DNA of 64,000 bases, taken from an uncultured bacterium (GTDB lineage Bacteria; Krumholzibacteriota; Krumholzibacteriia; Krumholzibacteriales; Krumholzibacteriaceae). Shown here piece after piece: positions 43,644 to 63,631 of this stretch. Under the pieces are notes generated by a model. That model did not search any database. It had not been told where the DNA came from and was given only the letters and a program-made list of their open reading frames with translations. Where the stretch lies: NCBI GenBank assembly GCA_964422745.1, contig CAYRCK010000004.1, forward strand, positions 4,497-68,496. The letters are read 5' to 3'. A program made the position numbers and the translations under genes. The stretch's first letter is position 1, and every line of letters begins with the position of its first letter.

Positions 43644-45371
43644 TTGAAGTTGCATGATATGCGGGTTTCATGTAGCATGGAACGACAATACGGAGCGCGA
43701 TGGGGGTATGCCGTGAATTCTGTCGTTATAGCCCTGGTAACGATCATAGCCTACATAATAGCATACAGGTACTACGCCGGATTCATCGCTGATCGTGTTC
43801 TTTCACTCGATCCTGTCAGAAAAACCCCTTCGGTGGAGTTCGAAGACGGCGTAGACTTCGTTCCCACTAGCAGAATTATTCTCTTCGGGCATCATTTCGC
43901 CTCTATCGCCGGTCTGGGACCCATACTCGGACCTGCCATCGCAGTGATCTGGGGTTGGCTTCCCGCAGTGCTGTGGATCCTGTTCGGGTCGGTCTTTCTC
44001 GGTGCCGTGCACGACTTCACCACTCTCTTCGTGTCGATTCGCAAGGGCGGCAGATCGATCGGCGATATCGCCGAATCTCTGATCGGACCAAGGGCCAGGA
44101 TTCTCTTCCTGGTTCTAATATTCTTCACGTTATCCCTTGCAATGGGGACATTTGTACAGATAATAGCCACGTTGTTCTCTCCTCAGTACCATCCCGAAGC
44201 CGTTCTTCCCGTTGTTTCACTGATCTTCCTGGCCGTGGCGGTGGGGATGCTCGTTTACAGGTGGGGGTGCAGGATTGCCCCGGCAACAGCGGCTGCCATC
44301 GTTGTCATGTTTTTCATGGTCTGGATCGGCATCAAGTATCCGGTCGGTGGTGTGAGCAAGACGGGGTGGACATACTTGCTGATAGCGTATGCATATGTCG
44401 CATCCGTACTTCCAGTTTGGCTGCTCCTGCAACCCAGGGATTATCTTAACGCATACCAGCTCGTGATAGGTATGGTCCTCATGTATGCCGGATTGTTCGT
44501 ATTCCGCCCGATGATCGCCGCTCCGACGGTAAACACCAGCCCTCAGGGCGCTCCGTCCCTTTTTCCTTTTCTTTTCATCACTATTGCTTGCGGGGCGATC
44601 TCGGGTTTCCACAATCTGGTTTCCAGCGGAACGACATCCAAACAGCTCGAGAGAGAACCCCAGGCTCGGTTGATCGGGTACGGGGGCATGCTGGCGGAGG
44701 GAGCTCTCGCCATCATAGTCGTGCTTTCCTGCGTCGCGGGCATATCGAAGGCGGATTGGCACGCCCATTACTCGTCCTGGCAGGAGGCATCGGGCCTTGC
44801 TGCGAAAATGGAGGCTTTCGTATTCGGTGCGGGTGAATTCATATCCAGGATCGGAATTCCGGTGGAACTGGCTAGGAGCTTTATAGTCGTTATGGCAGTG
44901 GGATTCGCAATGACGACGCTCGACTCGGGGACGAGGCTTCTACGATACAACCTCGAGGAACTCGGCGGCGGCCTTGGCATCAGGTTCATGAAGAACAGGT
45001 TCTTGGCGGCATTCATAGCCGTTCTGGGTATAGGATATTTCGGCCTCATGAAGGTGGATGGAAAAGCGGTCGGGCTGGCGCTTTGGGAGCTATTCGGGAC
45101 AACTAACCAGATCCTGGCCGCACTCGGACTCCTGACCGTCTCGCTGTTCCTGTATCGCTTGCGCAAACCGATAATATATACATTGATACCGATGGTCTGT
45201 ATGATGGGTATGACCGTTACGGCAATGGTCATAAAGCTGTCGATAAATTTCTCCGCCGGACGCTGGTCCCTGTTCTCGGTAGGCATGGTCATACTCGTCC
45301 TTGTGCTGTGGCTGGTGGTGGAGGCGGCTCTTTCGTTCAAGCGGCACATAAGGAACGGGCCGGCACAATAA
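43644..45371 (+). CDS. cstA: Carbon starvation protein CstA family transporter
   Basis: CstA N-terminal core (IAYRYYAGFIADRVL...FGHHFASIAGLGPILGPAIA), polytopic, 575 aa. Start may be the internal Met at about 43677. Confidence 0.85.
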   Translation: MKLHDMRVSCSMERQYGARWGYAVNSVVIALVTIIAYIIAYRYYAGFIADRVLSLDPVRKTPSVEFEDGVDFVPTSRIILFGHHFASIAGLGPILGPAIAVIWGWLPAVLWILFGSVFLGAVHDFTTLFVSIRKGGRSIGDIAESLIGPRARILFLVLIFFTLSLAMGTFVQIIATLFSPQYHPEAVLPVVSLIFLAVAVGMLVYRWGCRIAPATAAAIVVMFFMVWIGIKYPVGGVSKTGWTYLLIAYAYVASVLPVWLLLQPRDYLNAYQLVIGMVLMYAGLFVFRPMIAAPTVNTSPQGAPSLFPFLFITIACGAISGFHNLVSSGTTSKQLEREPQARLIGYGGMLAEGALAIIVVLSCVAGISKADWHAHYSSWQEASGLAAKMEAFVFGAGEFISRIGIPVELARSFIVVMAVGFAMTTLDSGTRLLRYNLEELGGGLGIRFMKNRFLAAFIAVLGIGYFGLMKVDGKAVGLALWELFGTTNQILAALGLLTVSLFLYRLRKPIIYTLIPMVCMMGMTVTAMVIKLSINFSAGRWSLFSVGMVILVLVLWLVVEAALSFKRHIRNGPAQ

Positions 45372-46315: not shown

Positions 46316-46807
46316 CTACTTGAGATCGAAATTCTTGTATTTCCCCGAAGCCAGATCGAAAAGCATCCAGCCGGGTTGTTCTCTCAACCCCATAAGCTCA
46401 CCCGGATTCACCAACCACGTGCCGCCTATCCTCTCTACTTTACGTAAGTGTGTGTGCCCGTAGAATACAGCCGTGTATTGTCCCGTGCTGGCAAGTCCCC
46501 GGGCGAATTCCGGCCTGTGCGTGAATGCGACGGTTCCGTATTCCGTTTCCAGAAATCCAACATCTCCATGTATTGTGATATTGGGATACTTCATCGAAAC
46601 CTTCTCGATCGTGTAACGGTCACCCTCGTTGTTTCCAAAGACGATATCGACCGGGCCTTCGAATCCTGCGATCCGGTCTATGACGAATGGAGAGCAGAGA
46701 TCACCGCAATGAATGATCGATCCGGCTTCCGACATGTTGATTTGCCCGAGTGCACTTTCGAGATTATTCAGGTGGTCGTGAGTGTCGCTGATAACCGCAA
46801 TTTTCAT
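46316..46807 (-). CDS. Metallophosphoesterase (YfcE/MJ0936-like phosphodiesterase)
   Basis: MKIAVISDTHDHL, GDLCSP, GNNEGD, GHTHL motifs of calcineurin-like phosphoesterases. Confidence 0.8.
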   Translation of the reverse strand: MKIAVISDTHDHLNNLESALGQINMSEAGSIIHCGDLCSPFVIDRIAGFEGPVDIVFGNNEGDRYTIEKVSMKYPNITIHGDVGFLETEYGTVAFTHRPEFARGLASTGQYTAVFYGHTHLRKVERIGGTWLVNPGELMGLREQPGWMLFDLASGKYKNFDLK

Positions 46808-47217
46808 GGCAGCCCTCCATTTGCGTGCATCTTGATACGGCCGGACGCCGAGAGGATGATCTATCGGGAGATGATATCAACTTTATCACAGTTTTGACAG
46901 CGGATAAGAAGTGGAACATTTTTCCGCTGACAACTTTCATCTGTCCTCCCGGACTGAAAAGATATGCGGGCAAGCCGCGTATCGTGTGCTGTATCCGATC
47001 ACCGGGAACTCTGTAATATACTATCATCCATACACTTCGTGCTTCGGAATCCGGGCAGATGTGAGTCCGTGCCGCTCATGGCATGCCTTTTGATCGATGT
47101 ACGATCTACGTGCAGGCGGGAAGCGTATCCTGGATTCCGGATGTACGATTTGAAACGGCATGGCTCCGGCCGTGCTTGGCAGGATATGGATCAATCCGAT
47201 AGGAAAGGTGAAATCTC

Positions 47218-48270
47218 GTGTCCATGAATGTCGGCGTAACGGATTGCTCCGAATACGTAAGAGCCTTTAATGAAGCCGAAGAGTTGCTTGGATCCGGCAA
47301 CGACTGCGAAGCAGAACCTATTCTGCTCAACCTCATCGGGATCACCGGTATCGCCTCCATCGCCTGTTTCCGGTTGGGGGAGATCTACAACAGGGGGGCG
47401 AAACCTATTAAATCAATCGAATATCACACGAAAGCTTTCGAGCTCGATCCGCGTCTGGCCTGTCGGATAACATCCAAGGAACATGTCCACAACGGATATA
47501 TCTTCAAGAAGGTGGACCAGAAACATGTCTCGTGCTGCCCCCTTTGCGACGGCCCCGGCAGGGAGCACTGGGTGTTCAATATGATAACGAATAACGATTT
47601 CAACGAGGGTTTTCATCCAATCCGGATCTGGATGTACTGTGATTCGTGCCATCACATATTCGCAAATAACTATCCATCAGAACTCGGGCGTGTTTTGAAG
47701 GGATCCGAGAACGATCAATACGAGAAGCCGAACACGGCGCTCCTCCACATTGTAGGTGAGATAGTATCGTCTATATCACTCAGATCGTCCGGTAATAGGC
47801 TGCTAGAAGTAGGTGTGGGGGCGGGGGAGATGTCGGCGGTGGCTAAGGAGTTCGGGTTCGACGTTACCGGCGTCGAGATAAGGCCCGCCCATGCGAAGAT
47901 GGTTTCGGACATGCTGGGAATCGAAGTCGTTCAATCAGACTTCATGGAGATGGAGACTTGCAGCCGGTACGATGTCATCTGCATGGGCGACGTCATCGAA
48001 CATATGCCGGATCCCGCGATCGCCTTGAGAAAAGCACGCTCCATGCTGGATCCAGGGGGGATCTTATGGATATCGACACCAAATTTCGATAGCGCTTTTT
48101 CAGTGATAACCGGTGATCTGGATCCCATGAAGAGGGTGTGCGAACATCTTAATTATTTCTCGAAGGTATCGATTGAAGGACTGCTGCAACGTACAGGTTT
48201 CAAGGTAGTCGACTATCGAGTATCCGGTCATTACAACGGTTCGATGGAAGTGCTGGCCGAGACGAGTTGA
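47218..48270 (+). CDS. Class I SAM-dependent methyltransferase with N-terminal helical (TPR-like) segment and CxxC...CxxC zinc-ribbon
   Basis: SAM motif I LEVGVGAGEM, motif post-I DVTGVEI, motif II/III (DVICMGDVIEHMPDP, GGILWISTPN). Cys pairs CCPLCDG and CDSCHH upstream of the MT core. Confidence 0.7.
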   Translation: MSMNVGVTDCSEYVRAFNEAEELLGSGNDCEAEPILLNLIGITGIASIACFRLGEIYNRGAKPIKSIEYHTKAFELDPRLACRITSKEHVHNGYIFKKVDQKHVSCCPLCDGPGREHWVFNMITNNDFNEGFHPIRIWMYCDSCHHIFANNYPSELGRVLKGSENDQYEKPNTALLHIVGEIVSSISLRSSGNRLLEVGVGAGEMSAVAKEFGFDVTGVEIRPAHAKMVSDMLGIEVVQSDFMEMETCSRYDVICMGDVIEHMPDPAIALRKARSMLDPGGILWISTPNFDSAFSVITGDLDPMKRVCEHLNYFSKVSIEGLLQRTGFKVVDYRVSGHYNGSMEVLAETS

Positions 48271-48588
48271 TCCAGGCAAGGATAAATTCCACAGGGCTGA
48301 TAGGAAAGATTTTACCTGTTTCACATCTCGGTGGAAGGATTTCGACCCTCCCGCATATATCCACGTCCGTAATCACATCCCAGCTCCGAAGACTTAACGG
48401 TGCCTTAACTCGTTTAACCAAAGAAAGTTCAAGGAGGACCGGTTTTATTTGTGCCCGGTCCGGATAGATAACCGAATGCAGGGCATGCTTCTTGATCCTT
48501 TCAAGTTTCGTTCTTCAGGCCGTGGGAATTGATTCCGCTTCGAAAGGGGATTTTTGTGGCGAATGACCGTGAGGCTGGGATTATCGAT

Positions 48589-50433
48589 ATGCATGACATC
48601 CTGATCAGAAACAAGGGGACGATCAGCTGCTGCATGATAGCCCGCAATGAAGAGGAGTTTATAGCAAGTGCCATCGGGAGCGTGAAGGATCTTGCAGATG
48701 AGATAATCGTGGTGGACACAGGTTCGGATGATCGTACTGCTTCTGTAGCTAGGGCATGCGGGGCCAAGGTATACCATGCACTGTGGACGGATGATTTCAG
48801 CGCAGCGAGAAATGCTTCTCTTGCCGGAGCGACAAAGGAATGGATACTGATACTTGATGCAGACGAATCCATAGCGAGTGATGATCACGGCAGAATAAGA
48901 GAGTTGATAGCCAGGTATCCCGATTCCGCATTCCTGTTCGAGCAGAGGACATACTCGAACAATTCTTCGATTTTCGGCTGGAAGCGGATAGATGAAGAAA
49001 GCGATGTGAATCATGGCGCTCTCGGGTATTTTTCCAACCGGCAGGTTCGCCTCTTCAGAAACGATGGCGCGATCCGTTACCGCGGTCATGTTCACGAAAA
49101 TGTGGAGCACGATCTTCGGGATAACGGCATAAGTATGTCCAATGTCGATATAGTTGTTCATCATTATGGAAGACTGGAAGCATCGGATAGGGTCAGCAGG
49201 AAATCCATGCTGTATCTGTCGCTCGGCAAGGATAAACTCAGCCACGATCCGGAAAACACAAAGTACATCTATGAAATTGCCAGCCAGTTGCTGGAGATCG
49301 GACACGCGGAAGAGGCTGCAGAGCATATAGAGAAGGTGTTGCAAACCGGTCTCCGATCATGGGAGTTCAACAACCTGCTGGGGCTCGCATATATGAAGCT
49401 TGGAAGGAAGGATGATGCCGTCGTGTGCCTTCGCGCGGCCGTCGATATCGAGAGTAATAATCCCGATTTACACAACAATCTAGGAGTCGCGTTGATGGAA
49501 GACGGAAAAGCCGGCCGGGCGCTCGATTCCTACAGGGAGGGATTGCTGATCGACGGAGACAACGCGAACCTTCTCAGAAATGCGGCATCGGCGTGCTGTT
49601 CACTCGGGATGATATCCGAAGCCGACGACTATATCCGCCAATCCCTTGCGATCGATCCGTTCATGCCCCAATCTCATGCGATCCAGGCGGAAGTGCTGTT
49701 TCGTAAAGGTGATTTCGCCGGGGCGGATTCCGCTTTGAAGAAGATTAGATTTCTGCCCGGCACACTGCTCAAGGTGTATCTGAAATCACTTCATCTCTAC
49801 GTACAGATGGGTATGATCGAGGAATCGGAGATGGTTTTGGAGAACGCGATTCGTGATTACCCGGAAAATGAAGGGTTGCTTTACCTTTCAGGAAAGATAT
49901 TCGAGTTGAAGGGAGATGATGAAAAGGCGATGGCCGCCTTGCACGGCCTGATTGCCTCAGGATCTCCCAACAGCGATGTCTTGAATAGCCTCGGGTGCAT
50001 ATACGAGAGGAGAGGAGAGTTCGGGAAAGCCCTCGAGTACTTCAGTGAATCGCACAGGCTTTCCCCCTCGAATGTTCAGATCTCAGTGAACCTGGGTATA
50101 ATAAAGGGAAAGGCGGGGATGAATGATGAAGCCGAATCGCATCTGAGGCAAGTTATCGCCGAGCACGAGAGTTGCGGTGCTGCTTACAATGCCTTGGGGT
50201 GCATTCTGGCATCCACGGGGCGGTTCGGTGAGGCTATGGAGTTTCTCGTCAAGGCGGTAGAGCTTGAACCCGGTAAATCTGAGTACTACCTGAATGTCGG
50301 CCTGGCCTGCGAAAAGCTCAACCTGTTCTCGAAGGCGATTGAATTCTACGAATGCATGGTCCGGGTCGATCCCAAGATGGCGGCGGCGGCGAAAGAGAGA
50401 CTGGGAAGGCTTCTGGCACCTGCATCGAGTTGA
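48589..50433 (+). CDS. Family 2 glycosyltransferase fused to C-terminal TPR repeats
   Basis: GT2 motifs (ISCCMIARNEEE, VVDTGSDDRT, DADE). More than 8 TPR-like repeats in the C-terminal 400 aa. ORF opens at 48529; ATG 48589 preferred. Confidence 0.8.
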   Translation: MHDILIRNKGTISCCMIARNEEEFIASAIGSVKDLADEIIVVDTGSDDRTASVARACGAKVYHALWTDDFSAARNASLAGATKEWILILDADESIASDDHGRIRELIARYPDSAFLFEQRTYSNNSSIFGWKRIDEESDVNHGALGYFSNRQVRLFRNDGAIRYRGHVHENVEHDLRDNGISMSNVDIVVHHYGRLEASDRVSRKSMLYLSLGKDKLSHDPENTKYIYEIASQLLEIGHAEEAAEHIEKVLQTGLRSWEFNNLLGLAYMKLGRKDDAVVCLRAAVDIESNNPDLHNNLGVALMEDGKAGRALDSYREGLLIDGDNANLLRNAASACCSLGMISEADDYIRQSLAIDPFMPQSHAIQAEVLFRKGDFAGADSALKKIRFLPGTLLKVYLKSLHLYVQMGMIEESEMVLENAIRDYPENEGLLYLSGKIFELKGDDEKAMAALHGLIASGSPNSDVLNSLGCIYERRGEFGKALEYFSESHRLSPSNVQISVNLGIIKGKAGMNDEAESHLRQVIAEHESCGAAYNALGCILASTGRFGEAMEFLVKAVELEPGKSEYYLNVGLACEKLNLFSKAIEFYECMVRVDPKMAAAAKERLGRLLAPASS

Positions 50434-50514
50434 TATCATTCTCCAACACGGCTAAAGTTCCAATACATTTCGGACGAACATCTATGGATGAGACGGTTCA
50501 TGGAGGTTTGATAA

Positions 50515-52005
50515 ATGAGAGACAGAGCAGTTATCCTGGTTGTCGACGACTCCAACAGTATTAGATACCGGATGAATGAAATACTCACCAATAACGGCTA
50601 TGAGGTGATACTAAGGGAAAACGGCGAGGCGGGCGTGCTCGCGGCACTCGAATTTTCTCCGGACCTCATAATAATGGATATCAATATGCCCAAGATGAAC
50701 GGATATCAGGCTTGCAGGATGCTGAAGTCATATCCTCAGACAAAGATCATCCCAGTGGCCGTTTTCACGACCGAGAATGAAACCAGTGAGAAGGTGAAGC
50801 TCTTCGATATCGGCGTGGAAGATTTTATCATCAAGGATGCGGATGAAGAGGAAGTGATAGCCAGGGTCAGCGGCCTTCTCCGCTGGAAAAATAACAGGGA
50901 CAAGATAATCAGGGACAAGAACAAACTCGGAAGCCTTCTGGATAGCCTAAGTGATTCGGTTATCATCGCCGACAACTCCGGCAGGCTTGTCTACTTCAAT
51001 CGCTCGGCCGCGCAGAGGTTCGGGCTTATCCCCGAGCTGATAAAGGATAAATTAGTGCGGGAACTGCTGCCCGCGAACGATAGGGTCGTTGAAATGTTCT
51101 CGCGGATAGAGAATCGCCATGAATTGGATGATTACGAATTAACGATCGAGATCGATGGAGAAGAAAAGATATTCAACGCGGGCACGAGCAGGGTTTTCGT
51201 CGATACCAGCGAAGATGTCGGTAGTGCTGTTATCCTGAAGGATATAACCGCGGAGAGGGTGGCGGAAAAGCTAAAATCTGAATTCTATTCCATGATCGCT
51301 CACGAGCTCAGAACGCCGATAAGTGTTGTTCTGGGTTACTCACGGTTGATACTGGAGGGGAAAGCGGGTGAGGTGACCGAGCTTCAGAGGGATTTCCTGA
51401 AGGCGGTCGAGGAGCGGGGAAAGATCCTGATGAAGCTCGTGAATGATTTTCTCGAGGTATCGAGGCTCGAGAACAATTTTGTCAATTTGAAAATAGATGA
51501 GTTCGATATATCGGAGCTCGTCGTTAGCGTGGTGGACGGGTTGAAACTTCTCGCCGATAACAAAAACATAAAGCTCACTTTCGATGGCGGCGGCAAGCCT
51601 CTGAGCATAGACGGTGACAGGGACAAGATGGAGCATGTCTTAGTCAACCTGATCGAGAACGGGATCAAGTATACCGAGGAGGGAGGCAGGGTGGCGGTAT
51701 CGTGCATGCATGATGATGATGGGATTCGAGTGGAGGTCTCGGATACCGGAATAGGGATGGACGAGGATGAGCAAAAATTCATATTCGACAGATTCAAAAG
51801 ACTTTCAAAGGCGGAGAAGAAGAAGATCAAGGGAACGGGTCTGGGATTGGCGATAGTGAAGGATATCGTCGATGCCCACGGGGGCAGAATACACGTGGAA
51901 AGCAAAGAAGGCGAGGGAAGCACATTCCGTGTGTGGTTGCCCGGGAGATTGGAATCGCCGGAGGATCAGGCCATCGGCACCGGGAAGGAGAAAACCTTGG
52001 TTTGA
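50515..52005 (+). CDS. Hybrid sensor histidine kinase (REC-PAS-HisKA-HATPase_c), cytoplasmic
   Basis: N-terminal receiver with DD...D...K (VVDDSNS, IIMDINMPKMNG), PAS-like middle, H-box MIAHELRTPIS, N/G1/G2 boxes (GTGLGLAIVKDIV). Confidence 0.85.
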   Translation: MRDRAVILVVDDSNSIRYRMNEILTNNGYEVILRENGEAGVLAALEFSPDLIIMDINMPKMNGYQACRMLKSYPQTKIIPVAVFTTENETSEKVKLFDIGVEDFIIKDADEEEVIARVSGLLRWKNNRDKIIRDKNKLGSLLDSLSDSVIIADNSGRLVYFNRSAAQRFGLIPELIKDKLVRELLPANDRVVEMFSRIENRHELDDYELTIEIDGEEKIFNAGTSRVFVDTSEDVGSAVILKDITAERVAEKLKSEFYSMIAHELRTPISVVLGYSRLILEGKAGEVTELQRDFLKAVEERGKILMKLVNDFLEVSRLENNFVNLKIDEFDISELVVSVVDGLKLLADNKNIKLTFDGGGKPLSIDGDRDKMEHVLVNLIENGIKYTEEGGRVAVSCMHDDDGIRVEVSDTGIGMDEDEQKFIFDRFKRLSKAEKKKIKGTGLGLAIVKDIVDAHGGRIHVESKEGEGSTFRVWLPGRLESPEDQAIGTGKEKTLV

Positions 52006-56605: not shown

Positions 56606-57088
56606 ATGGACACTCTAGAGGGAATAACACGGCTGAACGGCGCCGGGAAACAAAAATCCATCGGGGATGAGTCCGGTAAACTGGAAGAGGTATCTAGGGA
56701 TTTCGAAGGGATATTGATCGGTCAGTTCTTCCGTCTAATGAGCTCCACCATAGGGGAGGGTGGCATCATAGAGAAATCTTTCCAGAGAAGCATCTACGAG
56801 GATATGCTGCAGAATGAGTTCGCGAGGGTATTTTCACGCAGGGGTGGATTCAGGCTCCACGAGATCCTGGTTAAGAGGCTCGGTGCAAGATCGAATAATG
56901 ATCTCAGGCCGACGGAAGCATGTGATGTTAACGGTGAGGCCGCGGATGATGGCCTGAAGCTCAAGCGTCTAAACAGGAGATTCATGAAAATAGAAGATGT
57001 GTACCGTGAATCGGGCATTGCCGGTCCGGATGAAGGCGCCGCGAATTCACATCGGTTGGATGATCCCGAAAGGAAAAGAGGGGTGTAA
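56606..57088 (+). CDS. flgJ: Flagellar rod-binding protein (FlgJ N-terminal Rod_binding domain only; no muramidase domain)
   Basis: FEGILIGQFFRLM...YEDMLQNEFARVFSRRGGFRLHEILVKRL matches the rod-binding domain. 160 aa. Confidence 0.7.
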   Translation: MDTLEGITRLNGAGKQKSIGDESGKLEEVSRDFEGILIGQFFRLMSSTIGEGGIIEKSFQRSIYEDMLQNEFARVFSRRGGFRLHEILVKRLGARSNNDLRPTEACDVNGEAADDGLKLKRLNRRFMKIEDVYRESGIAGPDEGAANSHRLDDPERKRGV

Positions 57089-57090
57089 AG

Positions 57091-57639
57091 ATGTTGTCCC
57101 GAAAGAAGGAAGTATTCGATGCCGACGGGAGTGACGGTATGAAGGGCAAGATATCGTCGCTATGCAGGCTGATGCGTGAAGAGACGGGCCAGTGCAGGGA
57201 GCTTCTCAAGCTTGCCAAATCCGAACAGGACCTGTTGATGGGAAATGATATCGATGGGCTTTCCAGGAATACGGAGCTAATGAACGAGAATATAAGGACC
57301 CTAAAGAGCTGCCAGATAAGCAGGCGGAGGCTCATAAGGGAAATAGGTGGAGATCTGGGGATCGAACCTCAGGCCATTTCGATAGGCACTATAGGGAAGG
57401 AAGTCGATACGGATCTCCTCGAGGAGCTGGAAAAAACGAGTAAAGATCTTGTGGAAACAGGCGAAAAATTATACAGGGTGAACCATAATACTATCTATTT
57501 AATAGGTTTTTCGCTTGATTTGCTCGAGCAGCAAAGCCGGTTGTGGACTGAGATAGCAACCGAGGAAGAAGGTTACTGCGAAGAGGGGAAAAGGGTCAAG
57601 GGATCGGCCAGCCCGCTATTTATCGAAAAGAAAGCATAA
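57091..57639 (+). CDS. flgN: Flagellar export chaperone FlgN-like protein
   Basis: Helical Q/L/E-rich 182-aa protein immediately upstream of flgK-flgL (same order as B. subtilis yvyG/flgN-flgK-flgL). Confidence 0.5.
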   Translation: MLSRKKEVFDADGSDGMKGKISSLCRLMREETGQCRELLKLAKSEQDLLMGNDIDGLSRNTELMNENIRTLKSCQISRRRLIREIGGDLGIEPQAISIGTIGKEVDTDLLEELEKTSKDLVETGEKLYRVNHNTIYLIGFSLDLLEQQSRLWTEIATEEEGYCEEGKRVKGSASPLFIEKKA

Positions 57640-57662: not shown

Positions 57663-59045
57663 ATGGTAACACTATTCGGTATGCTCGAACTTAACAGGCG
57701 CAGCCTTTTGAGTTCACAGTACGCCCTTCAGACGATAAATCACAATATTGCCAATGTCAACACCGCCGGCTATTCGCGCCAACAGGTAAACATGCACACC
57801 AGCTATCCCATTAAAACGTCTTTCGGCGTTCTGGGGACGGGTGTTTCAGCGGTAAGCGTGCAGAGGGCCACGGCGGAGTTCTATACGAGACAGATGAGGA
57901 ACGAGAACTCCACTTTGGGCGGATGGGATGCGACATGCTCTGTGCTGTCGGAGATCGAGATGATTGTCAACGAACCGAGCGACACGGGATTGGCAAGCGC
58001 GCTCGATGCCTTCTTCAGTGCTTGGAACGATCTGGCTTCTGATCCGGAAAGCAGTGCGTTGAGGGTGGGAGTCGTGGAGTCGGCCAAGACGCTGTGTGAA
58101 ACGATGCACGAGATGGATCATTCATTGCAGAAAACCGGCGATAACATAGAGAGCCAGATAAAATACAATGTGGATCAATTCAACAAACTCCTGACAATGA
58201 TATCGGAGCTGAATGGAAAGATCGTTGCCACCGAATCATCCGGTGTTTCCGCCAGCGACCTTCGCGATGAACGTGACCGATTGATTCTGGAAGCGTCTAG
58301 GATCGCCAGGATAGATGTGAAGGAGGACCGTTATGGAGCTGTAGACGTTTTTCTGGGCGGCACGAATGTGGTTCACCGTTCTGAGGCGAGATATCTCGAT
58401 ACAAGCCTGGAATCGCTGTCGGGCAACAACTGGGTGGAGGTCGTGGCTGAAAACAACGGTGAGACGATAAGGGTCGAGGATGGAGAGCTGGCGGGGCTGT
58501 TGGAGGTTCGAGCCGAAAACCTCGATCAGGTGAGAAATTCCCTGGACAATATAGCGAGCATCCTGATCGCGAAGGTCAACGAGATCCACAGCCGTGGAAT
58601 GACTTCCCAGGGAAGCGGCTTTGATTTCTTCGTAGGCGAGGGGGCGGGGGATATTTCTATATCGCTGCCTATAGAGCAAAACGCGGATCTGGTAGCCACG
58701 TCCTATGACGGCACTATCGGTGACAACACGCTCGCCAACGATATCTGCACTCTGTCGGAAACCATTATTTCGGAAGATGAGCCGCTGACGATAAACGGGC
58801 TGTACGAATCGCTTGTCGCAGAGGTCGGGATCTACAGCAGGAACGCCAGGAATATGATGAGCAACCAGACGCTGATTCTGGATAATATCGAATTGAGAAA
58901 AGAGAGTATCACCGGTGTCAATCTAGATGAGGAACTCATCCAGCTGACGAAGTTCGAGCAGTCTTACGAAGCGGCAGCCAGGGTTCTGAAGACAGTTGAG
59001 GAATTGACAGATACAATTCTCGATCTCGTACAGGGGATATACTAA
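57663..59045 (+). CDS. flgK: Flagellar hook-associated protein 1 FlgK
   Basis: N-terminal rod/hook motif (LQTINHNIANVNTAGYSRQQV) and FlgK C-terminal helical domain. 460 aa. Confidence 0.85.
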   Translation: MVTLFGMLELNRRSLLSSQYALQTINHNIANVNTAGYSRQQVNMHTSYPIKTSFGVLGTGVSAVSVQRATAEFYTRQMRNENSTLGGWDATCSVLSEIEMIVNEPSDTGLASALDAFFSAWNDLASDPESSALRVGVVESAKTLCETMHEMDHSLQKTGDNIESQIKYNVDQFNKLLTMISELNGKIVATESSGVSASDLRDERDRLILEASRIARIDVKEDRYGAVDVFLGGTNVVHRSEARYLDTSLESLSGNNWVEVVAENNGETIRVEDGELAGLLEVRAENLDQVRNSLDNIASILIAKVNEIHSRGMTSQGSGFDFFVGEGAGDISISLPIEQNADLVATSYDGTIGDNTLANDICTLSETIISEDEPLTINGLYESLVAEVGIYSRNARNMMSNQTLILDNIELRKESITGVNLDEELIQLTKFEQSYEAAARVLKTVEELTDTILDLVQGIY

Positions 59046-60616
59046 TGCGGATTTCCTTCAGAATGATAAGCCGGCAGCCTTTGAAGGCGATTTTTGAAAA
59101 TCTGGAGCGCCTGACGGACCTCCAGGCGAAGGCCAGTACGATGAAGAAGTACAGCAAACCGTCCGACGATCCTCAGGCGGTAATGAAAAGCATGGGATTC
59201 AATACCCTGCTCAAGCAGAACGAGATGTACAGGACAAACGTCGGGAACGCCAGCGTATATCTGAAGATGGTTGATTCCACTCTTATTTCGGTCAAGGAAC
59301 AGCTGGATTCGGCCAAGAGGATAGCGCTCGAGCAGCGTAACGATGTATCGTCTGCCGAGATGCGCCGGGCTGCATCCATCGAAGTTCAGGGAATTATTTC
59401 AGCGGTTCAGGATCTCATGAACACGAAATTCCACGGAAAGTACCTGTTCGCCGGGCATGAGACACAGACGGTGCCGTTCCAGGAAATGAGCGGGGCTATC
59501 AGATATATGGGTGACGATGGACTCATACAGTTTCGGGTCGGAGCGGCCAGGCTGATCGATGTCACCGTGCCCGGTTCCAGGTTCGAATCTCTGGGTGGGA
59601 GCCATAGCATCGATTCTTTCACGATGATAACGTCCTTGAGCTCGGCAACCCGGCTCGAGACGCTGAACGAAGGACTTGGTGTCAGTCCCGGAAGGATAAG
59701 GTTGGAGGTGGATTCGGGTGTTTTTGTGGATATCGATCTTTCTGGAGCCGAGACGATCGAAGATATGGTCGACATGATCAACAACGGGGCCAGAGGCGCC
59801 GTACCGCCCATAAATATAATAACCGGCATCAATCCGTCATCACGTAACAGTATAGTTATTCAGCACATGGGGAGCGGCGAGATTACGGTGTCGGAGCTCG
59901 ACGGAGGCACTACGGGGGAGGATCTGGGGATTATCGGCACTAGCGTCTCGGGGATTCTGAGGGGGGCGCCTCTGGATCCGATCATGACCCTGGATACGAG
60001 GATTACGGATGTCCAGCCGATCAACAGGACTATTCTACAGCAGATAAGAGTTGTTATGGGCGAAGATAGCCACGAGGTGGATTTTTTCAGCCCAGCCTAT
60101 CCGGTGACCGTCGGGGATATGCTTTCGAGGATCATGGATTCCGTTCCGGGGCTTGAAGCGGAGATCAATGCGAGCAATGACGGAATAGTGTTCACGGCCG
60201 ATACGTCATTCAGCATCGAGGAGGTGGGTGCCGGAACCACCGCCGCCGATCTGGGTATCCTCGGAGCATCAGAGCCGTATGGTCCGTTCTCGCTTTTCGC
60301 CGCCCTCGAGACGCTTGAACAGGCACTGATACAGAATGACGGCGATGCCATCGGTCGATCCCTGGCTGAAATGGAGGAGTTGATCAACCTGATGCTGGAA
60401 GTGGAGGCGGAAATCGGCGCCAGGGGTGAACAGGTCGATATTCTCGATATCCGTCTTCAGGATTCCGACACGAGGCTTCAGGAAAACCTATCCCTGGTCG
60501 AGGACATCGATATAACCGAAGTATTGACCGAACTCTCGGAGGCCCAGCTCGCATACGAGGCCGCCCTTCAAACTGCGTCCACGCTATATAACCTGAGCCT
60601 TCTGAAATACTACTGA
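59045..60616 (+). CDS. flgL: Flagellar hook-associated protein 3 FlgL (flagellin-like)
   Basis: Flagellin-N-like start (MRISFRMI...SDDPQAVMKSM), flagellin-C-like end; long (523 aa) with large central insertion. Confidence 0.8.
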   Translation: MRISFRMISRQPLKAIFENLERLTDLQAKASTMKKYSKPSDDPQAVMKSMGFNTLLKQNEMYRTNVGNASVYLKMVDSTLISVKEQLDSAKRIALEQRNDVSSAEMRRAASIEVQGIISAVQDLMNTKFHGKYLFAGHETQTVPFQEMSGAIRYMGDDGLIQFRVGAARLIDVTVPGSRFESLGGSHSIDSFTMITSLSSATRLETLNEGLGVSPGRIRLEVDSGVFVDIDLSGAETIEDMVDMINNGARGAVPPINIITGINPSSRNSIVIQHMGSGEITVSELDGGTTGEDLGIIGTSVSGILRGAPLDPIMTLDTRITDVQPINRTILQQIRVVMGEDSHEVDFFSPAYPVTVGDMLSRIMDSVPGLEAEINASNDGIVFTADTSFSIEEVGAGTTAADLGILGASEPYGPFSLFAALETLEQALIQNDGDAIGRSLAEMEELINLMLEVEAEIGARGEQVDILDIRLQDSDTRLQENLSLVEDIDITEVLTELSEAQLAYEAALQTASTLYNLSLLKYY

Positions 60617-60641: not shown

Positions 60642-61112
60642 ATGAAAATAGGGTCGTCCCGCTTCGACGAGGTTGAGATTGATGACAAGGACGTAATGAA
60701 CTTCGAGAGAGGTATCATAGGATTTCCAAGCCTCAAGAGATTCGTGTTGATGGATTTCTCGGACTCGTCCCCATTTCACTGGTTGCAGTCGATTGATGAG
60801 CCGGAGGTCGGCTTCGTCGTCTCAGATCCCGGTGTTTTTATCGAGAATTATGTCGTGAACATAGATGATGATACGAAACAACTGCTTTGAGTGGATAAAG
60901 ACAGTGAGATGGTTGTGATGATCGTTGTAACCGTTAAGGATGGAGGCAGGGATGTCTCGGGCAACCTTATGGGCCCTATTATAGTGAATGCGGATAAGCG
61001 CTTGGGCTGCCAGGTAGTGATCAATACGCCGGATTACAACACGAGAACCCCAATGAAGAATGACGCCGGCATCGGGCGATCGAGCAAGGCAAACATCGGC
61101 GTCGCGGTTTAA
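60642..61112 (+). pseudogene. fliW: Flagellar assembly factor FliW interrupted by an in-frame TGA (60888-60890); two halves in the same frame
   Basis: Residues 1-82 (GFPSLKRFVLMDFSDSSPFHWLQSIDEPEVGFVVSDPGVFIENY) plus residues after the stop (VVMIVVTVKDGGRDVSGNLMGPIIVNADKRLGCQVV) align colinearly with FliW. TGA terminates many other genes here. Confidence 0.7.
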
Positions 61113-61120
61113 GGGGAAAG

Positions 61121-61366
61121 ATGCTGGTACTCACGAGAAAGATCAACGAGAAGATCGTTATCTCGGCCGATATAGTGGTTACCGTCCTCACTGTAGACGG
61201 GGATCAGGTCAGGCTCGGTATAGAAGCGCCGTCCGATATCAGTGTCCACAGGCAGGAAGTGTTCGATGAGATAATCAGGTCGAACCGGCAGGCCATTCAA
61301 AAGAGCAACAACAGGGCGGATATTCTCCAATCGATCCTGAGCGGCAGAAGCAAGGGAAACGGCTGA
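61121..61366 (+). CDS. csrA: Carbon storage regulator CsrA (flagellin translation repressor)
   Basis: [51 protein letters not shown] canonical CsrA. fliW-csrA-flagellin synteny. Confidence 0.9.
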
Positions 61367-61447
61367 TCCCCCCGCTGTTCGCGAAAACCATTCCAGAAAA
61401 ATACAGCACATATCTCCATAATACGCAGCGATCCCGAAAAATTTCAC

Positions 61448-61475
61448 TAAAGATCACATTCATTCCATCCGATAG
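61448..61475 (+). promoter_or_regulatory. Putative sigma-28 (FliA/SigD) promoter for flagellin
   Basis: TAAA (61448-51), 16 nt, tCCGATAg (61468-75) versus consensus TAAA-N15-GCCGATAA; about 140 nt upstream of the fliC ATG. Confidence 0.45.
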
Positions 61476-61555
61476 ATGTGGATGAAGATGGGGGAACCTT
61501 TCCGAATCCGGACCGGCGCACCGTTTGTAAGGTATTAGAAGTGTGCCGGTGCGGT

Positions 61556-61606
61556 AACAAGGAAGCCGGAAAGGTGAGAGTGAGGTCCTACGTCCAAGGA
61601 AGGAGG
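61556..61606 (+). promoter_or_regulatory. Putative CsrA-binding GGA motifs in the flagellin leader (one overlapping the Shine-Dalgarno)
   Basis: AACAAGGAAGC (61556-66) flanked by CCGG...CCGG able to present GGA in a loop. Second site CCAAGGAAGGAGG (61594-606) is the SD, 8 nt before ATG 61614. Confidence 0.4.
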
Positions 61607-61613
61607 TCGTTAA

Positions 61614-63002
61614 ATGGGCTTCAGAATCAACCACAATATCAGCAGTATCAACGCGCTGAGAAACCTGGCTCTGACCGAGTCCAGCGTCGCGAAATCTCTC
61701 GAGAGGTTGAGCTCGGGACTTCGCGTAAACAGGGGTGCCGATGATCCGGCGGGTCTCGTGATCTCCGAGAACATGAGATCTCAGATATCCGGAATCCAGC
61801 AGGCCATCGAGAACGCCGAGACCGCAACGGCGATGATACAGACCGCGGAGGGAGCGATGACAGAGATCCACACGCTCCTAAACAATATCCGCGAGCTGGC
61901 CATCCATGCCGCCAACACCGGTGCCAACGATTCCGTGATGCTGGCAGCGGATCAGGACGAGATCACGAACGCGATCGCGACCATCGACAGGATAGCCAGC
62001 CAGACACAGTTCGGCGTTAAGAAGCTGCTCGACGGTTCGAGCGGTGTGACCGGAACGTCCAACGACAGCGATGTGACGTTCCTGTCCGCATCGGAGAATA
62101 CGATTGCCGGTTCCTACGCTGTAGATATCACTACCCAGGCGGAGCAGGCTATATCGACGGCAGGTACCAACCAGACGGCCGCTCTCGGTGCCGCCGAGAC
62201 CCTGACGATTCAGGGGGTTGCGATCAACCTGACGGCCGGTATGACTCAGGCCCAGGTCGTAACCACGATCAACAACTACAACGCGTCGACAGGTGTTACG
62301 GCGTCCGTCGTCGGTGGCGCGCTGACTCTTACGACCGATATGTACGGCAGCAATGTCGACATATCCGTCGTATCGAACGTCGCGGCCGCCACGACCAGCA
62401 CAGGTGTCGGTACGACTCCGATCACGGACAGCGGAGTCGATATCGCCGGTACTCTCGGCGGGCTGGCCGCCACGGGTAACGGAAAGGTCCTGACCGGTGA
62501 CGATGGATTGGCCGTCGAGGGTCTCTCGATCGAGTCGATCGCTACTGGTGCCCAGGGAGCGATTACGATTGTCAACAATTCGCTCGTGTTCCAGGTTGGG
62601 CCCAATGCCAACCAGACGGTCGAGATCGCGCTCAACGCCATGAGCTCGACGACCCTAGGCGCCGGCGTCTCAGGCAATCTGTTCAATAACTTGAGCGAGA
62701 TCGACGTCACGACTGCCGAAAACGCCCAGGATTCGATCCTGCTGATCGACGACGCAATTCAGGATGTCTCGGCCAAGCGAGGCGAGCTCGGTGCGTTCCA
62801 GAAGAACACTCTGGAGAGCAATACGAGAAACCTCGCCATCGCCGAGGAGAACCTCGTAGCGGCGGAATCGGTGATACGTGATACCGATTTCGCAAAGGAA
62901 ATGGCCCAGATGACAAAGAGCCAGATCCTGCTACAGTCCGGCACCGCCATGTTGGTGCAGGCGAACCAGATTCCTCAGGTTGTGCTGCAGCTGCTGCAGT
63001 AA
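61614..63002 (+). CDS. fliC: Flagellin
   Basis: MGFRINHNISSINALRNL...GLRVNRGADDPAGLVISE N-terminal D0/D1. C-terminal VIRDTDFAKEMAQMTKSQILLQSGTAMLVQANQIPQ. S/T/G/A-rich central variable domain. 462 aa. Confidence 0.95.
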   Translation: MGFRINHNISSINALRNLALTESSVAKSLERLSSGLRVNRGADDPAGLVISENMRSQISGIQQAIENAETATAMIQTAEGAMTEIHTLLNNIRELAIHAANTGANDSVMLAADQDEITNAIATIDRIASQTQFGVKKLLDGSSGVTGTSNDSDVTFLSASENTIAGSYAVDITTQAEQAISTAGTNQTAALGAAETLTIQGVAINLTAGMTQAQVVTTINNYNASTGVTASVVGGALTLTTDMYGSNVDISVVSNVAAATTSTGVGTTPITDSGVDIAGTLGGLAATGNGKVLTGDDGLAVEGLSIESIATGAQGAITIVNNSLVFQVGPNANQTVEIALNAMSSTTLGAGVSGNLFNNLSEIDVTTAENAQDSILLIDDAIQDVSAKRGELGAFQKNTLESNTRNLAIAEENLVAAESVIRDTDFAKEMAQMTKSQILLQSGTAMLVQANQIPQVVLQLLQ

Positions 63003-63021
63003 TGAGGAGATGAAAATCCCG

Positions 63022-63051
63022 GTCCTCCCCGGCCGTCCGGCCGGGGAGGAC
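63022..63051 (+). terminator. Strong hairpin downstream of flagellin (intrinsic terminator, no U-tract)
   Basis: Perfect 13-bp stem GTCCTCCCCGGCC / GGCCGGGGAGGAC with 4-nt loop GTCC, 20 nt after the fliC stop. Confidence 0.6.
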
Positions 63052-63075
63052 TGATGAGTGCACGGGAGAACCGCC

Positions 63076-63468
63076 ATGAGGATCGGCAACATAGAAAGCC
63101 AGCTCCAAGAGCTCCGGGCTGATAATCGATCCCCCGCTGAATCAATGGTATCAGGGAAAGGTGATGGGGCGGGAAGGGCCGGGGGACCGAATGAGGCCGG
63201 GCGCTCGGAGGACATTCATCCAATGCGACCGGATCGGGGAAATTCGCAGCATATCATCATGGATTCGAGAGACTGTAATTTGGATCCGGATAAGTACCGA
63301 AGGAATCTCGATTACACTAAACACAGTGGCACGGGCAAGTATTTCGTGAGGGTTATTGATTCCTCGAGCGGTGAGGTGATACGGGAAGTGCCCCCTGAAG
63401 GCCAACTGGATCGAATGGCAAGGATCAGAGATCTTATTCGGAAAGCCTATAGTGTGAGCGACTATTGA
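63076..63468 (+). CDS. flaG: Flagellar protein FlaG
   Basis: C-terminal KYFVRVIDSSSGEVIREVPPEGQLD matches the FlaG family motif; located between fliC and fliD. ORF opens at 63058; ATG 63076 preferred. Confidence 0.65.
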   Translation: MRIGNIESQLQELRADNRSPAESMVSGKGDGAGRAGGPNEAGRSEDIHPMRPDRGNSQHIIMDSRDCNLDPDKYRRNLDYTKHSGTGKYFVRVIDSSSGEVIREVPPEGQLDRMARIRDLIRKAYSVSDY

Positions 63469-63631
63469 TGGAGCCTTTCTCTCTGCAAAGATAGCCGCCG
63501 CGTGATCATCCGATAGGCATAATTTTCCCATATGGAATTTTACTTAAAGAAGTTACATCGTTATGCCGATAGTAATTATATATAGGTATCGTCTCACGTA
63601 TGGGACCGGTTTGAAAGGAGACTAGTTAGCG

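Follow-up and report, generated by a model that had tools for sequence, protein, structure and literature searches.

Partner switching among Hag, FliW and CsrA controls flagellin synthesis in B. subtilis (Yakhnin 2007; Mukherjee 2011; reviewed in PMC7652899; see also PMC6529632), where the hag leader carries two CsrA sites, one of them lying over the Shine-Dalgarno (SD) sequence (PMC7652899), and where flgM, flgN, flgK, flgL and yviE are adjacent (PMC4054197). In C. jejuni, FliW is an antagonist of CsrA, and the 45-nt flaA leader forms two adjacent hairpins, SL1 and SL2, which present ANGGA loops at a 21-nt spacing, with CANGGANG as the high-affinity motif (PMC4894983). Two sites have also been predicted in C. 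difficile, BS1 (TGACAAGGATGT) and BS2 (CTAAGGAGGG), and deletion of fliW lowers FliC 10.4-fold in this species (PMC8523840).

The locus described here lies in a window of 64,000 nt, the whole stretch of DNA that was analysed, and shows the gene order flgN-flgK-flgL-fliW-csrA-flagellin-flaG-fliD (the identity of fliD being taken from the window gene table). The order from flgN to the flagellin gene is that of B. subtilis, except that in B. subtilis yviE stands between flgL and the fliW, csrA and flagellin genes. The features to which the text refers are the following:

60642-61112, + strand: fliW (Pfam PF02623, 6e-37 with the internal stop masked)
61121-61366, + strand: csrA, 81 aa (Pfam PF02599, 1.4e-23)
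61433-61476, + strand: putative sigma-28-type promoter of the flagellin gene (pattern match and conservation)
61496-61575, + strand: predicted structured part of the leader (MFE fold)
61558-61565, + strand: predicted CsrA site 1 (BS1), CAAGGAAG, a match to CANGGANG with GGA at 61561-61563
61595-61602, + strand: predicted CsrA site 2 (BS2), CAAGGAAG, with GGA at 61598-61600
61614-63002, + strand: flagellin gene (fliC/hag type), 462 aa (Pfam Flagellin_N 1.7e-36, Flagellin_C 6e-23, and Flagellin_IN)
63020-63053, + strand: perfect 15-bp GC-rich hairpin with no U tract (-38 kcal/mol, z -5.5)
63545-63571, + strand: second putative sigma-28-type promoter, TAAAG-N16-GCCGATAG, upstream of fliD (pattern match, sequence)

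The Pfam identities and the coordinates agree with the original prediction in placing csrA directly between fliW and the flagellin gene. The locus is a clear if unremarkable instance of the already known FliW-CsrA-flagellin feedback switch, and we consider it probable that the flagellin leader is driven by sigma-28, bears two CsrA sites and belongs to a loop of the Hag-FliW-CsrA type, of which fliW carries a nonsense codon in this assembly. Among solved structures, FliW comes closest to the FliW that was co-crystallised with CsrA in 5DMB (residues 2-136, chain A, 1e-27). For CsrA, the PDB search returned as top match 1T3O, deposited under the title 'Carbon storage regulator' and which we take to be the B. 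subtilis protein, aligned over residues 1-65, and the CsrA chain of 5DMB (D) was matched as well. Apart from the 5DMB complex, alignments to other CsrA/RsmE chains end at residues 44-55, whereas that to 1T3O reaches 65; the window CsrA thus shares with the B. subtilis protein, to which it is most similar, a C-terminal tail extending past the RNA-binding core (~55-60 residues), as in CsrA of the FliW type. A gap of 8 nt separates fliW and csrA, and 247 nt lie between the end of csrA and the flagellin ATG; adjacency of fliW and csrA is also found in the fliW-csrA-fliC arrangement of C. difficile (PMC8523840, PMC11898703), a Gram-positive in which the two genes overlap by 10 bp. Unlike B. subtilis, the host is a diderm, with flgH (L-ring) and flgI (P-ring) encoded in the window, and it belongs to an uncultured Latescibacteria/Krumholzibacteriota-like lineage; for flagellin relatives sharing 60-79% identity, the source records give the names Latescibacteria or Krumholzibacteriota.

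The octamer CAAGGAAG, a fit to the high-affinity CsrA/RsmE motif CANGGANG, makes up both predicted CsrA sites. BS1 lies 53 nt upstream of the flagellin ATG (61614), BS2 overlaps the SD (GGAGG, 61602-61606), and the two GGA cores are 37 nt apart; in extended form the sites read AACAAGGAAGC (GGA 61561-61563) and CCAAGGAAGGAGG (GGA 61598-61600). Two CANGGANG octamers in the 247-nt intergenic region compare with 0.086 expected, and CCANGGAAGGAGG occurs in a single exact copy in the window. The arrangement of two GGA sites with one over the SD is that of B. subtilis hag, in which the leader is shorter and site 1 stands at about -38 rather than -53 (PMC13443453). It also recalls C. jejuni flaA, with two ANGGA sites that resemble CANGGANG hexaloops, the second over the ribosome-binding site, behind a sigma-28-type flagellin promoter, although the window leader is about 130 nt long, has the wider 37-nt spacing and is predicted to form a long-range helix. 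In sequence, BS1 and BS2 of C. difficile are very near to those of this leader and of related ones (for instance AACAAGGAAGC in the window and TACAGGGATGT in the leader L100). The short reading frames downstream of site 1, considered as a possible leader peptide, were rejected on reading the sequences, as those of the window and of L090 are not conserved.

The comparison with relatives covered 13 flagellin leaders (11 distinct) from loci linked to fliW-csrA, with csrA and fliW immediately upstream in every case. Exactly two CANGGANG octamers were present in each of the 13, against 0.02-0.11 expected per leader; in 12 of them the SD-proximal octamer overlaps the SD 14-17 nt before the ATG and the upstream octamer lies at 42-55 nt, the variant being L102a, with octamers at -131 and -45. 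Likewise, CCA-N-GGAAGGAG(G) is retained at site 2 in 12 of the 13 (L102a has AGGAAAGGAG; that of L107a ends in GGAGC), in leaders that show little conservation elsewhere (mean column identity 46%, taken across the entire alignment with its flanks). L105 and L108, two related flagellin loci that lack an adjacent fliW-csrA, contain no CANGGANG octamer and keep GGAGG SDs. Among wider searches, a metagenome scan with the FliW alignment gave four loci, one of them new but distant, and the FliW protein search gave three matches. Overall, since sites and promoter recur in place while the rest has diverged, conservation supports well the reading of the leader as a CsrA target, and the two CsrA-consensus-like GGA motifs of the original prediction, one at the SD, are borne out by the sequence and by the relatives. 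The same elements could be read as translation signals only, with no role for CsrA at the leader, site 2 being a long strong SD and site 1 serving for ribosome standby or as an enhancer: taken alone, AAGGAAGGAGG makes a good SD, a purine-rich GGA near a start codon also resembles a strong SD, the unlinked L105 and L108 still have their GGAGG SDs, and ACANGGAWG is not enriched across the whole window (3 vs. 3.8 expected). Conservation, however, extends beyond the purine run and takes in the full CANGGANG octamer with its flanking C and G, the closing pair of the CsrA/RsmE hexaloop, and the octamer occurs exactly twice, at fixed distances, in all linked loci, with csrA and fliW immediately upstream, and is missing from the two unlinked ones. 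We therefore hold a purely translational role of these elements to be very improbable.

Transcription of the flagellin gene may start within the intergenic region. The original prediction had named a sigma-28-like promoter, TAAA-N16-tCCGATAg, and pattern matching, shuffled sequences and conservation in relatives all uphold it, as a match to the sigma-28/SigD type that serves flagellin in B. subtilis. It comprises a -35 element TAAAG (61448-61452), a -10 element CCGATAGA (61469-61476) and an A/T-rich block CCCGAAAAATTTCAC (61433-61447). From TAAA (61448-61451) to CCGATA (61469-61474) the spacer is 17 nt, one base above the sigma-28 consensus of E. coli and B. subtilis. TAAA-N14-18-CCGATA occurs three times in the window against 0.56 expected, a count reached in 2 of 100 shuffles, and the box upstream of fliD has a spacing identical to that of the flagellin promoter. 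Seven other long leaders (L090, L100, L102b, L103b, L104b, L107b, and L105) share the layout: an A/T block, GAAAAATTTC, is followed by (T)cAAGT or TAAAG and, after 16-17 nt, by CGATA or CGAAA. From these positions we infer a transcription start near 61481-61484 and a leader of about 130 nt. No sigma-70-like site was found by the site scan on the + strand of the csrA-flagellin intergenic region, and fliA is absent among the approximately 28 annotated ORFs of the window.

In the csrA-flagellin interval, the terminator scan likewise found no terminator-like site on the + strand, as would be expected if the flagellin gene shared most of its transcripts with fliW-csrA, starting from a promoter further upstream, the sigma-28-like match being incidental and the "leader" an internal intergenic stretch of a longer mRNA. 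Relatives with tandem flagellins, in which the first copy follows csrA by 116-159 nt without a recognisable sigma-28 box, point the same way. Such an account appears improbable to us, as the -35 and -10 elements, their spacing and the A/T block are kept in seven long leaders across lineages, L105 keeps the promoter although no csrA lies upstream of it, and the same box recurs upstream of fliD. Read-through and initiation at the gene's own promoter could both occur, and control by CsrA would work either way.

With a start at the putative sigma-28-type promoter, the leader is predicted to fold into an outer helix, P1 (61496-61504 paired with 61567-61575), that encloses a hairpin, P2 (61508-61554), together with 12 unpaired nucleotides (61555-61566) on which site 1 lies. 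The fold of 61480-61630 has an MFE of -54.7 kcal/mol (z -3.75), that of 61482-61616 a z of -2.5, and the predicted unpaired probability is 0.88 for BS1 and 0.97 for BS2. The first GGA had been proposed to be presented in a hairpin loop by its flanking CCGG/CCGG; the folding leaves site 1 unpaired but sets it between the long-range helix and the inner hairpin, with the upstream CCGG in the 3' arm of P2 and the downstream CCGG in the 3' arm of P1, and a CCGG/CCGG hairpin is not what the folding favours. When the BS1 segment is folded alone, a local CGGU/GCCG hairpin can form with the GGA in a 9-nt loop (-9.2 kcal/mol), and site 1 is thus predicted to be exposed in full-leader and local folds alike. 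In this respect the window differs from B. subtilis, since the fold places site 1 on an internal unpaired strand flanked by two helices instead of in an apical loop. BS2 is predicted to form a weak 3-bp hairpin, UCC/AAGGAA/GGA, with a C-G closing pair (-5.4 kcal/mol, z -0.6), and a CC/AAGGAA/GG of this kind would resemble the RsmE/CsrA hexaloop (CANGGANG, PMC4894983). BS1, with the same CAAGGAAG, departs from that hexaloop in having no flanking complementarity for a stem in the window; L090, L100, L088 and L104a keep ACA...UGU around site 1, so that a hexaloop stem could form there.

The same layout, built from other helix sequences, is predicted in L090, L100, L102b and L107a. It was found in 5 of the 11 distinct leaders, the window counted, against 0-11% of shuffles per leader, and the resulting P = 3e-4 is only suggestive, the criteria having been set after the window fold was seen. 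Support for structure is uneven, with z close to 0 for several relatives' leaders. RNAalifold on MAFFT alignments recovered only a 6-pair SD hairpin in the four closest leaders and no pairs in 28 leaders from other phyla; because the helices are too divergent in sequence for MAFFT to keep register, per-sequence folds and the layout test were used. Rfam returned only a tRNA over the whole window and, for 61367-61660 at up to E=10, a sole, spurious lncRNA match (12 bits). An analogous form, GGGG..hairpin..AAACGGAUUGAA..CCCC..CAUGGAGG, occurs in Riflebacteria, Ozemobacteraceae and other lineages (names from records). The P1(P2 + site 1)-site 2 arrangement might be an ancient, uncatalogued element of flagellin 5'-UTRs, co-inherited with fliW-csrA across phyla, and the fliW nonsense codon a real antagonist-null variant; taken together, these two propositions seem to us doubtful.

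The module had been described as complete, which does not hold for the window as read, since fliW carries an in-frame TGA at 60888-60890, codon 83 of 156, that splits it into an 82-aa and a 73-aa ORF. In this, too, the window differs from B. subtilis, and the full loop is not encoded here. An alternative genetic code was ruled out as an explanation, as flgL and csrA end in TGA and the sibling assemblies read CGA. In seven independent assemblies position 60888 is a C, the codon is CGA (Arg) and fliW is intact, this being the sole difference from sequences otherwise identical over up to 5880 bp. Both forms are on public record: an 82-aa FliW fragment and a 64-aa downstream fragment, each from deposited NCBI sequence (a contig of 146,547 bp for the former), and an intact 156-aa FliW from JGI/ENA contigs.

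Should this base call be genuine, CsrA would have no antagonist, and translation of flagellin would for the most part be shut off. The module would then be a decaying remnant in this genome, its feedback loop defunct, and the lineage would have flagellin locked off or be heading towards loss of motility. The position of the TGA at codon 83 within a fold that covers residues 2-136, the truncated 82-aa and 64-aa downstream fragments on record from deposited NCBI sequence, and the approximately 10-fold reduction of FliC on fliW deletion in C. difficile (PMC8523840) are all compatible with decay. The lesion nevertheless amounts to a single base, read as CGA in seven assemblies of the same population that show 100% identity elsewhere over up to 5.9 kb, the other flagellar genes checked in the window are all intact, and the TGA is no less likely to be an error of consensus or polishing, or a minor allele. 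Decay is hence plausible but, in our judgement, somewhat improbable, and the stop is an annotation caveat for any inference of motility from this MAG.

By homology with B. subtilis, C. jejuni and C. difficile, regulation through the probable Hag-FliW-CsrA-type loop would proceed as follows. A CsrA dimer, encoded just upstream, would bridge both sites and block the 30S subunit, thereby repressing flagellin translation; the long-range helix and the inner hairpin would keep site 1 unpaired and its distance to site 2 constant, and P1 may set the geometry for this bridging. In an intact system, free FliW would bind CsrA and lift the repression, and cytoplasmic flagellin would bind FliW, giving a homeostatic loop. 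Of the original prediction that CsrA occludes the flagellin SD and FliW relieves it, occlusion gains support from conservation, whereas the relief arm is unworkable as encoded in the window, where fliW breaks off at codon 83 of 156. Sibling assemblies encode an intact FliW.

On the evidence of sequence, the known post-transcriptional circuit is extended to an uncultured diderm lineage in which genetics is impossible, and the locus agrees with the suggestion of an ancestral control of flagellin by FliW and CsrA. A 2026 screen predicted few Krumholzibacteriota CsrAs to repress the B. subtilis hag leader (PMC13443453); as the native leaders carry canonical sites of the high-affinity type, this prediction can be tested on native targets.

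Directly 3' of the flagellin stop codon, the hairpin at 63020-63053 was missed in the terminator scan because it is not followed by a T run; it is likely to be a transcript-end or stabilising structure.

The csrA and flagellin genes lie within a run of flagellar genes, identified by Pfam matches:

56606-57088, rod-binding (FlgJ-like) protein
57091-57639, FlgN
57663-59045, FlgK
59045-60616, FlgL
60642-61112, FliW (PF02623, 6e-37)
61121-61366, CsrA (PF02599, 1.4e-23)
61614-63002, flagellin (Flagellin_N, Flagellin_IN and Flagellin_C)
63076-63468, FlaG

In the gene table fliD comes next after flaG, while flgF, flgG, flgA, flgH and flgI are present upstream of the run, and the host is therefore a diderm. 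Among solved structures CsrA was closest to PDB 1T3O, B. subtilis CsrA, with the alignment extending through residue 65, and it also matched CsrA in the FliW-CsrA complex 5DMB, to whose FliW chain the window's FliW aligned over residues 2-136 (1e-27). The nearest relatives of the flagellin share 60-79% identity and come from records assigned to Candidatus Latescibacteria or Krumholzibacteriota.

The best-supported reading of this locus is the Hag-FliW-CsrA partner switch, known to combine a CsrA block, FliW antagonism and FliW sequestration (PMC7652899, PMC6529632) and shown with the same logic in C. jejuni (PMC4894983) and C. difficile (PMC8523840). Here, CsrA bound to two leader sites, one covering the Shine-Dalgarno sequence (SD), would block ribosome binding, FliW would antagonise CsrA, and flagellin would sequester FliW. 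The window differs from the known systems in its host lineage, its longer leader and a predicted long-range helix, and its two sites are 37 nt apart, as against 21 nt in C. jejuni. The original observation of a complete FliW-CsrA-flagellin module is confirmed in part and its interpretation supported in part: its sequence elements exist and are conserved, but the module is incomplete at fliW, and folding favours another structure over the proposed hairpin.

Both GGA sites of the leader consist of the identical octamer CAAGGAAG and match CANGGANG, the high-affinity CsrA/RsmE motif (PMC4894983). Predicted site 1 (61558-61565) has its GGA 53 nt 5' of the ATG, and predicted site 2 (61595-61602), with its GGA 16 nt 5' of the ATG, overlaps the SD GGAGG (61602-61606); two CsrA-consensus-like motifs, one of them at the SD, are thus found where they had been proposed, and the pair is conserved in the leaders of relatives. 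The 247-nt csrA-flagellin spacer holds two such octamers vs. 0.086 expected, and the looser motif ACANGGAWG showed no enrichment window-wide (3 vs. 3.8 expected). The case for the predicted CsrA sites is one of position and conservation, not of count.

Related loci (L-numbers, with a and b for the first and second flagellin gene of a tandem pair) were gathered by looking up exact protein matches and by searching for flagellin homologues. Seven sibling assemblies of the same population have a leader identical to that of the window and hence carry no comparative information, whereas more distant relatives share ~50-56% identity in FliW and 66-79% in flagellin. The order flgL-fliW-csrA-flagellin(-flagellin)-flaG-fliD is kept in most relatives (no flaG was called in L107), and their leaders are difficult to align beyond a few blocks. 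Every one of the 13 flagellin leaders with fliW-csrA linkage, a set of 11 distinct sequences to which tandem pairs contribute both their genes, has exactly two CANGGANG octamers (0.02-0.11 expected per leader), one located 14-17 nt and the other 42-55 nt before the ATG, or 45 and 131 nt before it in the variant leader L102a. Site 1 reads AACAAGGAAG in the window, AACATGGATGT in L090, TACAGGGATGT in L100 and L104a, and TACACGGATGT in L088, all similar to the E. coli SELEX consensus RUACARGGAUGU. These sequences also resemble the predicted BS1 of C. difficile, TGACAAGGATGT (PMC8523840). Site 2 has the form CCA-N-GGAAGGAG(G) in 12 of the 13 linked leaders. In L105/L106 and L108, which have related flagellin genes and no fliW-csrA in the flgL-to-flagellin interval (the absence of csrA refers to that interval only), the leaders lack the CANGGANG octamer and the SD is a plain GGAGG. 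Considering this conservation together with the gene linkage, the two leader octamers are quite likely CsrA sites. A 2026 Swarm-seq model predicted hag-repressing CsrAs to be infrequent in Krumholzibacteriota (PMC13443453), in contrast to the two canonical CANGGANG sites in the native flagellin leaders of the clade (L090-L107).

Tandem flagellin pairs are present in L102, L103, L104 and L107, where the first gene starts 116-159 nt after csrA and lacks a recognisable sigma-28 box, and a sigma-28-type promoter of its own precedes the second. Both leaders retain a pair of CANGGANG sites, and L103b, L104b and L107b, which are longer, contain an additional upstream GGAAAGGAG(G) block. The L091 flagellin gene was called as two pieces (311 aa and 172 aa), pointing to either a frameshift or an assembly error.

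The module is not complete in that fliW carries an in-frame TGA at 60888-60890 (codon 83 of 156), which removes about half of the FliW fold. Both flgL and csrA terminate with TGA, so the codon acts as an ordinary stop here. Along stretches of up to 5880 bp, the single base that creates this stop is all that distinguishes the window from seven independent assemblies, each with CGA (Arg) at the position. An 82-aa fragment of FliW and a 64-aa fragment downstream of it were recorded from an NCBI contig of 146,547 bp, and the intact 156-aa FliW from JGI and ENA contigs; the stop therefore belongs to a deposited assembly, and may just as well reflect a consensus error or a minor allele. Were it real, CsrA would be unopposed and a lower flagellin output would be expected; in C. 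difficile, fliW deletion reduced FliC 10.4-fold (PMC8523840). A GTG at 60891, directly after the TGA, starts a 73-aa ORF spanning the C-terminal half of FliW.

The proposed sigma-28-like promoter was recovered before the flagellin gene, with the -35 TAAA at 61448-61451 and the -10 CCGATA at 61469-61474. A second TAAA/CCGATA copy with identical spacing precedes fliD (63545-63571). On both strands of the 64 kb, TAAA-N14-18-CCGATA occurs three times vs. 0.56 expected (at least three in 2/100 shuffles). The third match (TAAA-N14-CCGATA, 46862-46885, minus strand), ~55 nt 5' of a metallophosphoesterase gene (46316-46807, minus strand), may be due to chance, because its spacer is shorter than in both flagellar copies. 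On the plus strand of the csrA-flagellin spacer neither a sigma-70-like nor a terminator-like site was found. The promoter layout, namely an A/T-rich block GAAAAATTTC, (T)cAAGT or TAAAG, 16-17 nt, and CGATA or CGAAA, is kept in L090, L100, L102b, L103b, L104b, L107b and L105. In two 4484_7-lineage assemblies (L092:3592-3886 and L095:2306-2600) a 14-nt sequence (GATAGATTTCTGAT) is tandemly duplicated in the spacer 5' of the promoter.

Folding of the leader, as originally suggested, gave a predicted structure of -54.7 kcal/mol for 61480-61630, well below shuffled controls (z -3.75; -2.5 for 61482-61616). In it an outer helix, P1, pairs ACCUUUCCG (61496-61504) with CGGAAAGGU (61567-61575) and encloses an inner hairpin, P2 (61508-61554), and site 1 is predicted to lie within the unpaired 12-nt strand separating the two; the unpaired probabilities of the GGA cores of sites 1 and 2 are 0.88 and 0.97. 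The CCGG/CCGG hairpin proposed around site 1 is not the favoured structure, the two CCGG copies being divided between P2 and P1. Folded by itself, the segment can form a local CGGU/GCCG hairpin whose loop holds the GGA, and either way site 1 is predicted to be exposed. The same layout was predicted independently in L090, L100, L102b and L107a with unrelated helix sequences (P1 arms ACCCCC/GGGGGU in L090, GGCCCCGU/AUGGGGCU in L100 and AGUCUCC/GGAGGCU in L102b). It appears in 5/11 distinct leaders vs. 0-11% of shuffles per leader (Poisson-binomial P ~3e-4), a statistic that is suggestive only, because the layout criteria were fixed after the fold of the window was seen, several relatives' leaders fold no better than shuffles, and RNAalifold on sequence-based alignments of the leaders found almost no structure. 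No Rfam family matched the leader.

The csrA-adjacent flagellin leaders of L015-L076 (e.g., L034:4347-4434), L013, L020 and L023, from loci recorded under Riflebacteria, Ozemobacteraceae and other lineages, share one arrangement: a sigma-28 -10 box TCCGATG, GGGG, a small hairpin (AGCUUCGAAGCU, GGCCAGGAAGGCC or GGCUAUUUCAGCC), an A-rich AAACGGAUUGAA, CCCC, and CAUGGAGG at the SD. This matches the outer helix, hairpin and single-stranded GGA predicted for the window, with helix sequences varying by subgroup.

Elsewhere in the window, a perfect 15-bp GC-rich hairpin without a U tract (63020-63053; -38 kcal/mol, z -5.5) immediately follows the flagellin stop, with flaG next. The window also contains cstA (carbon starvation protein A, 43644-45371); in E. 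coli this gene is a classical target of CsrA (PMC7652899). Immediately 5' of flgF, the genes at 47218-52005 encode a methyltransferase, a glycosyltransferase-TPR protein and a hybrid response-regulator/PAS/histidine kinase, and may be linked to flagellin modification or flagellar regulation.
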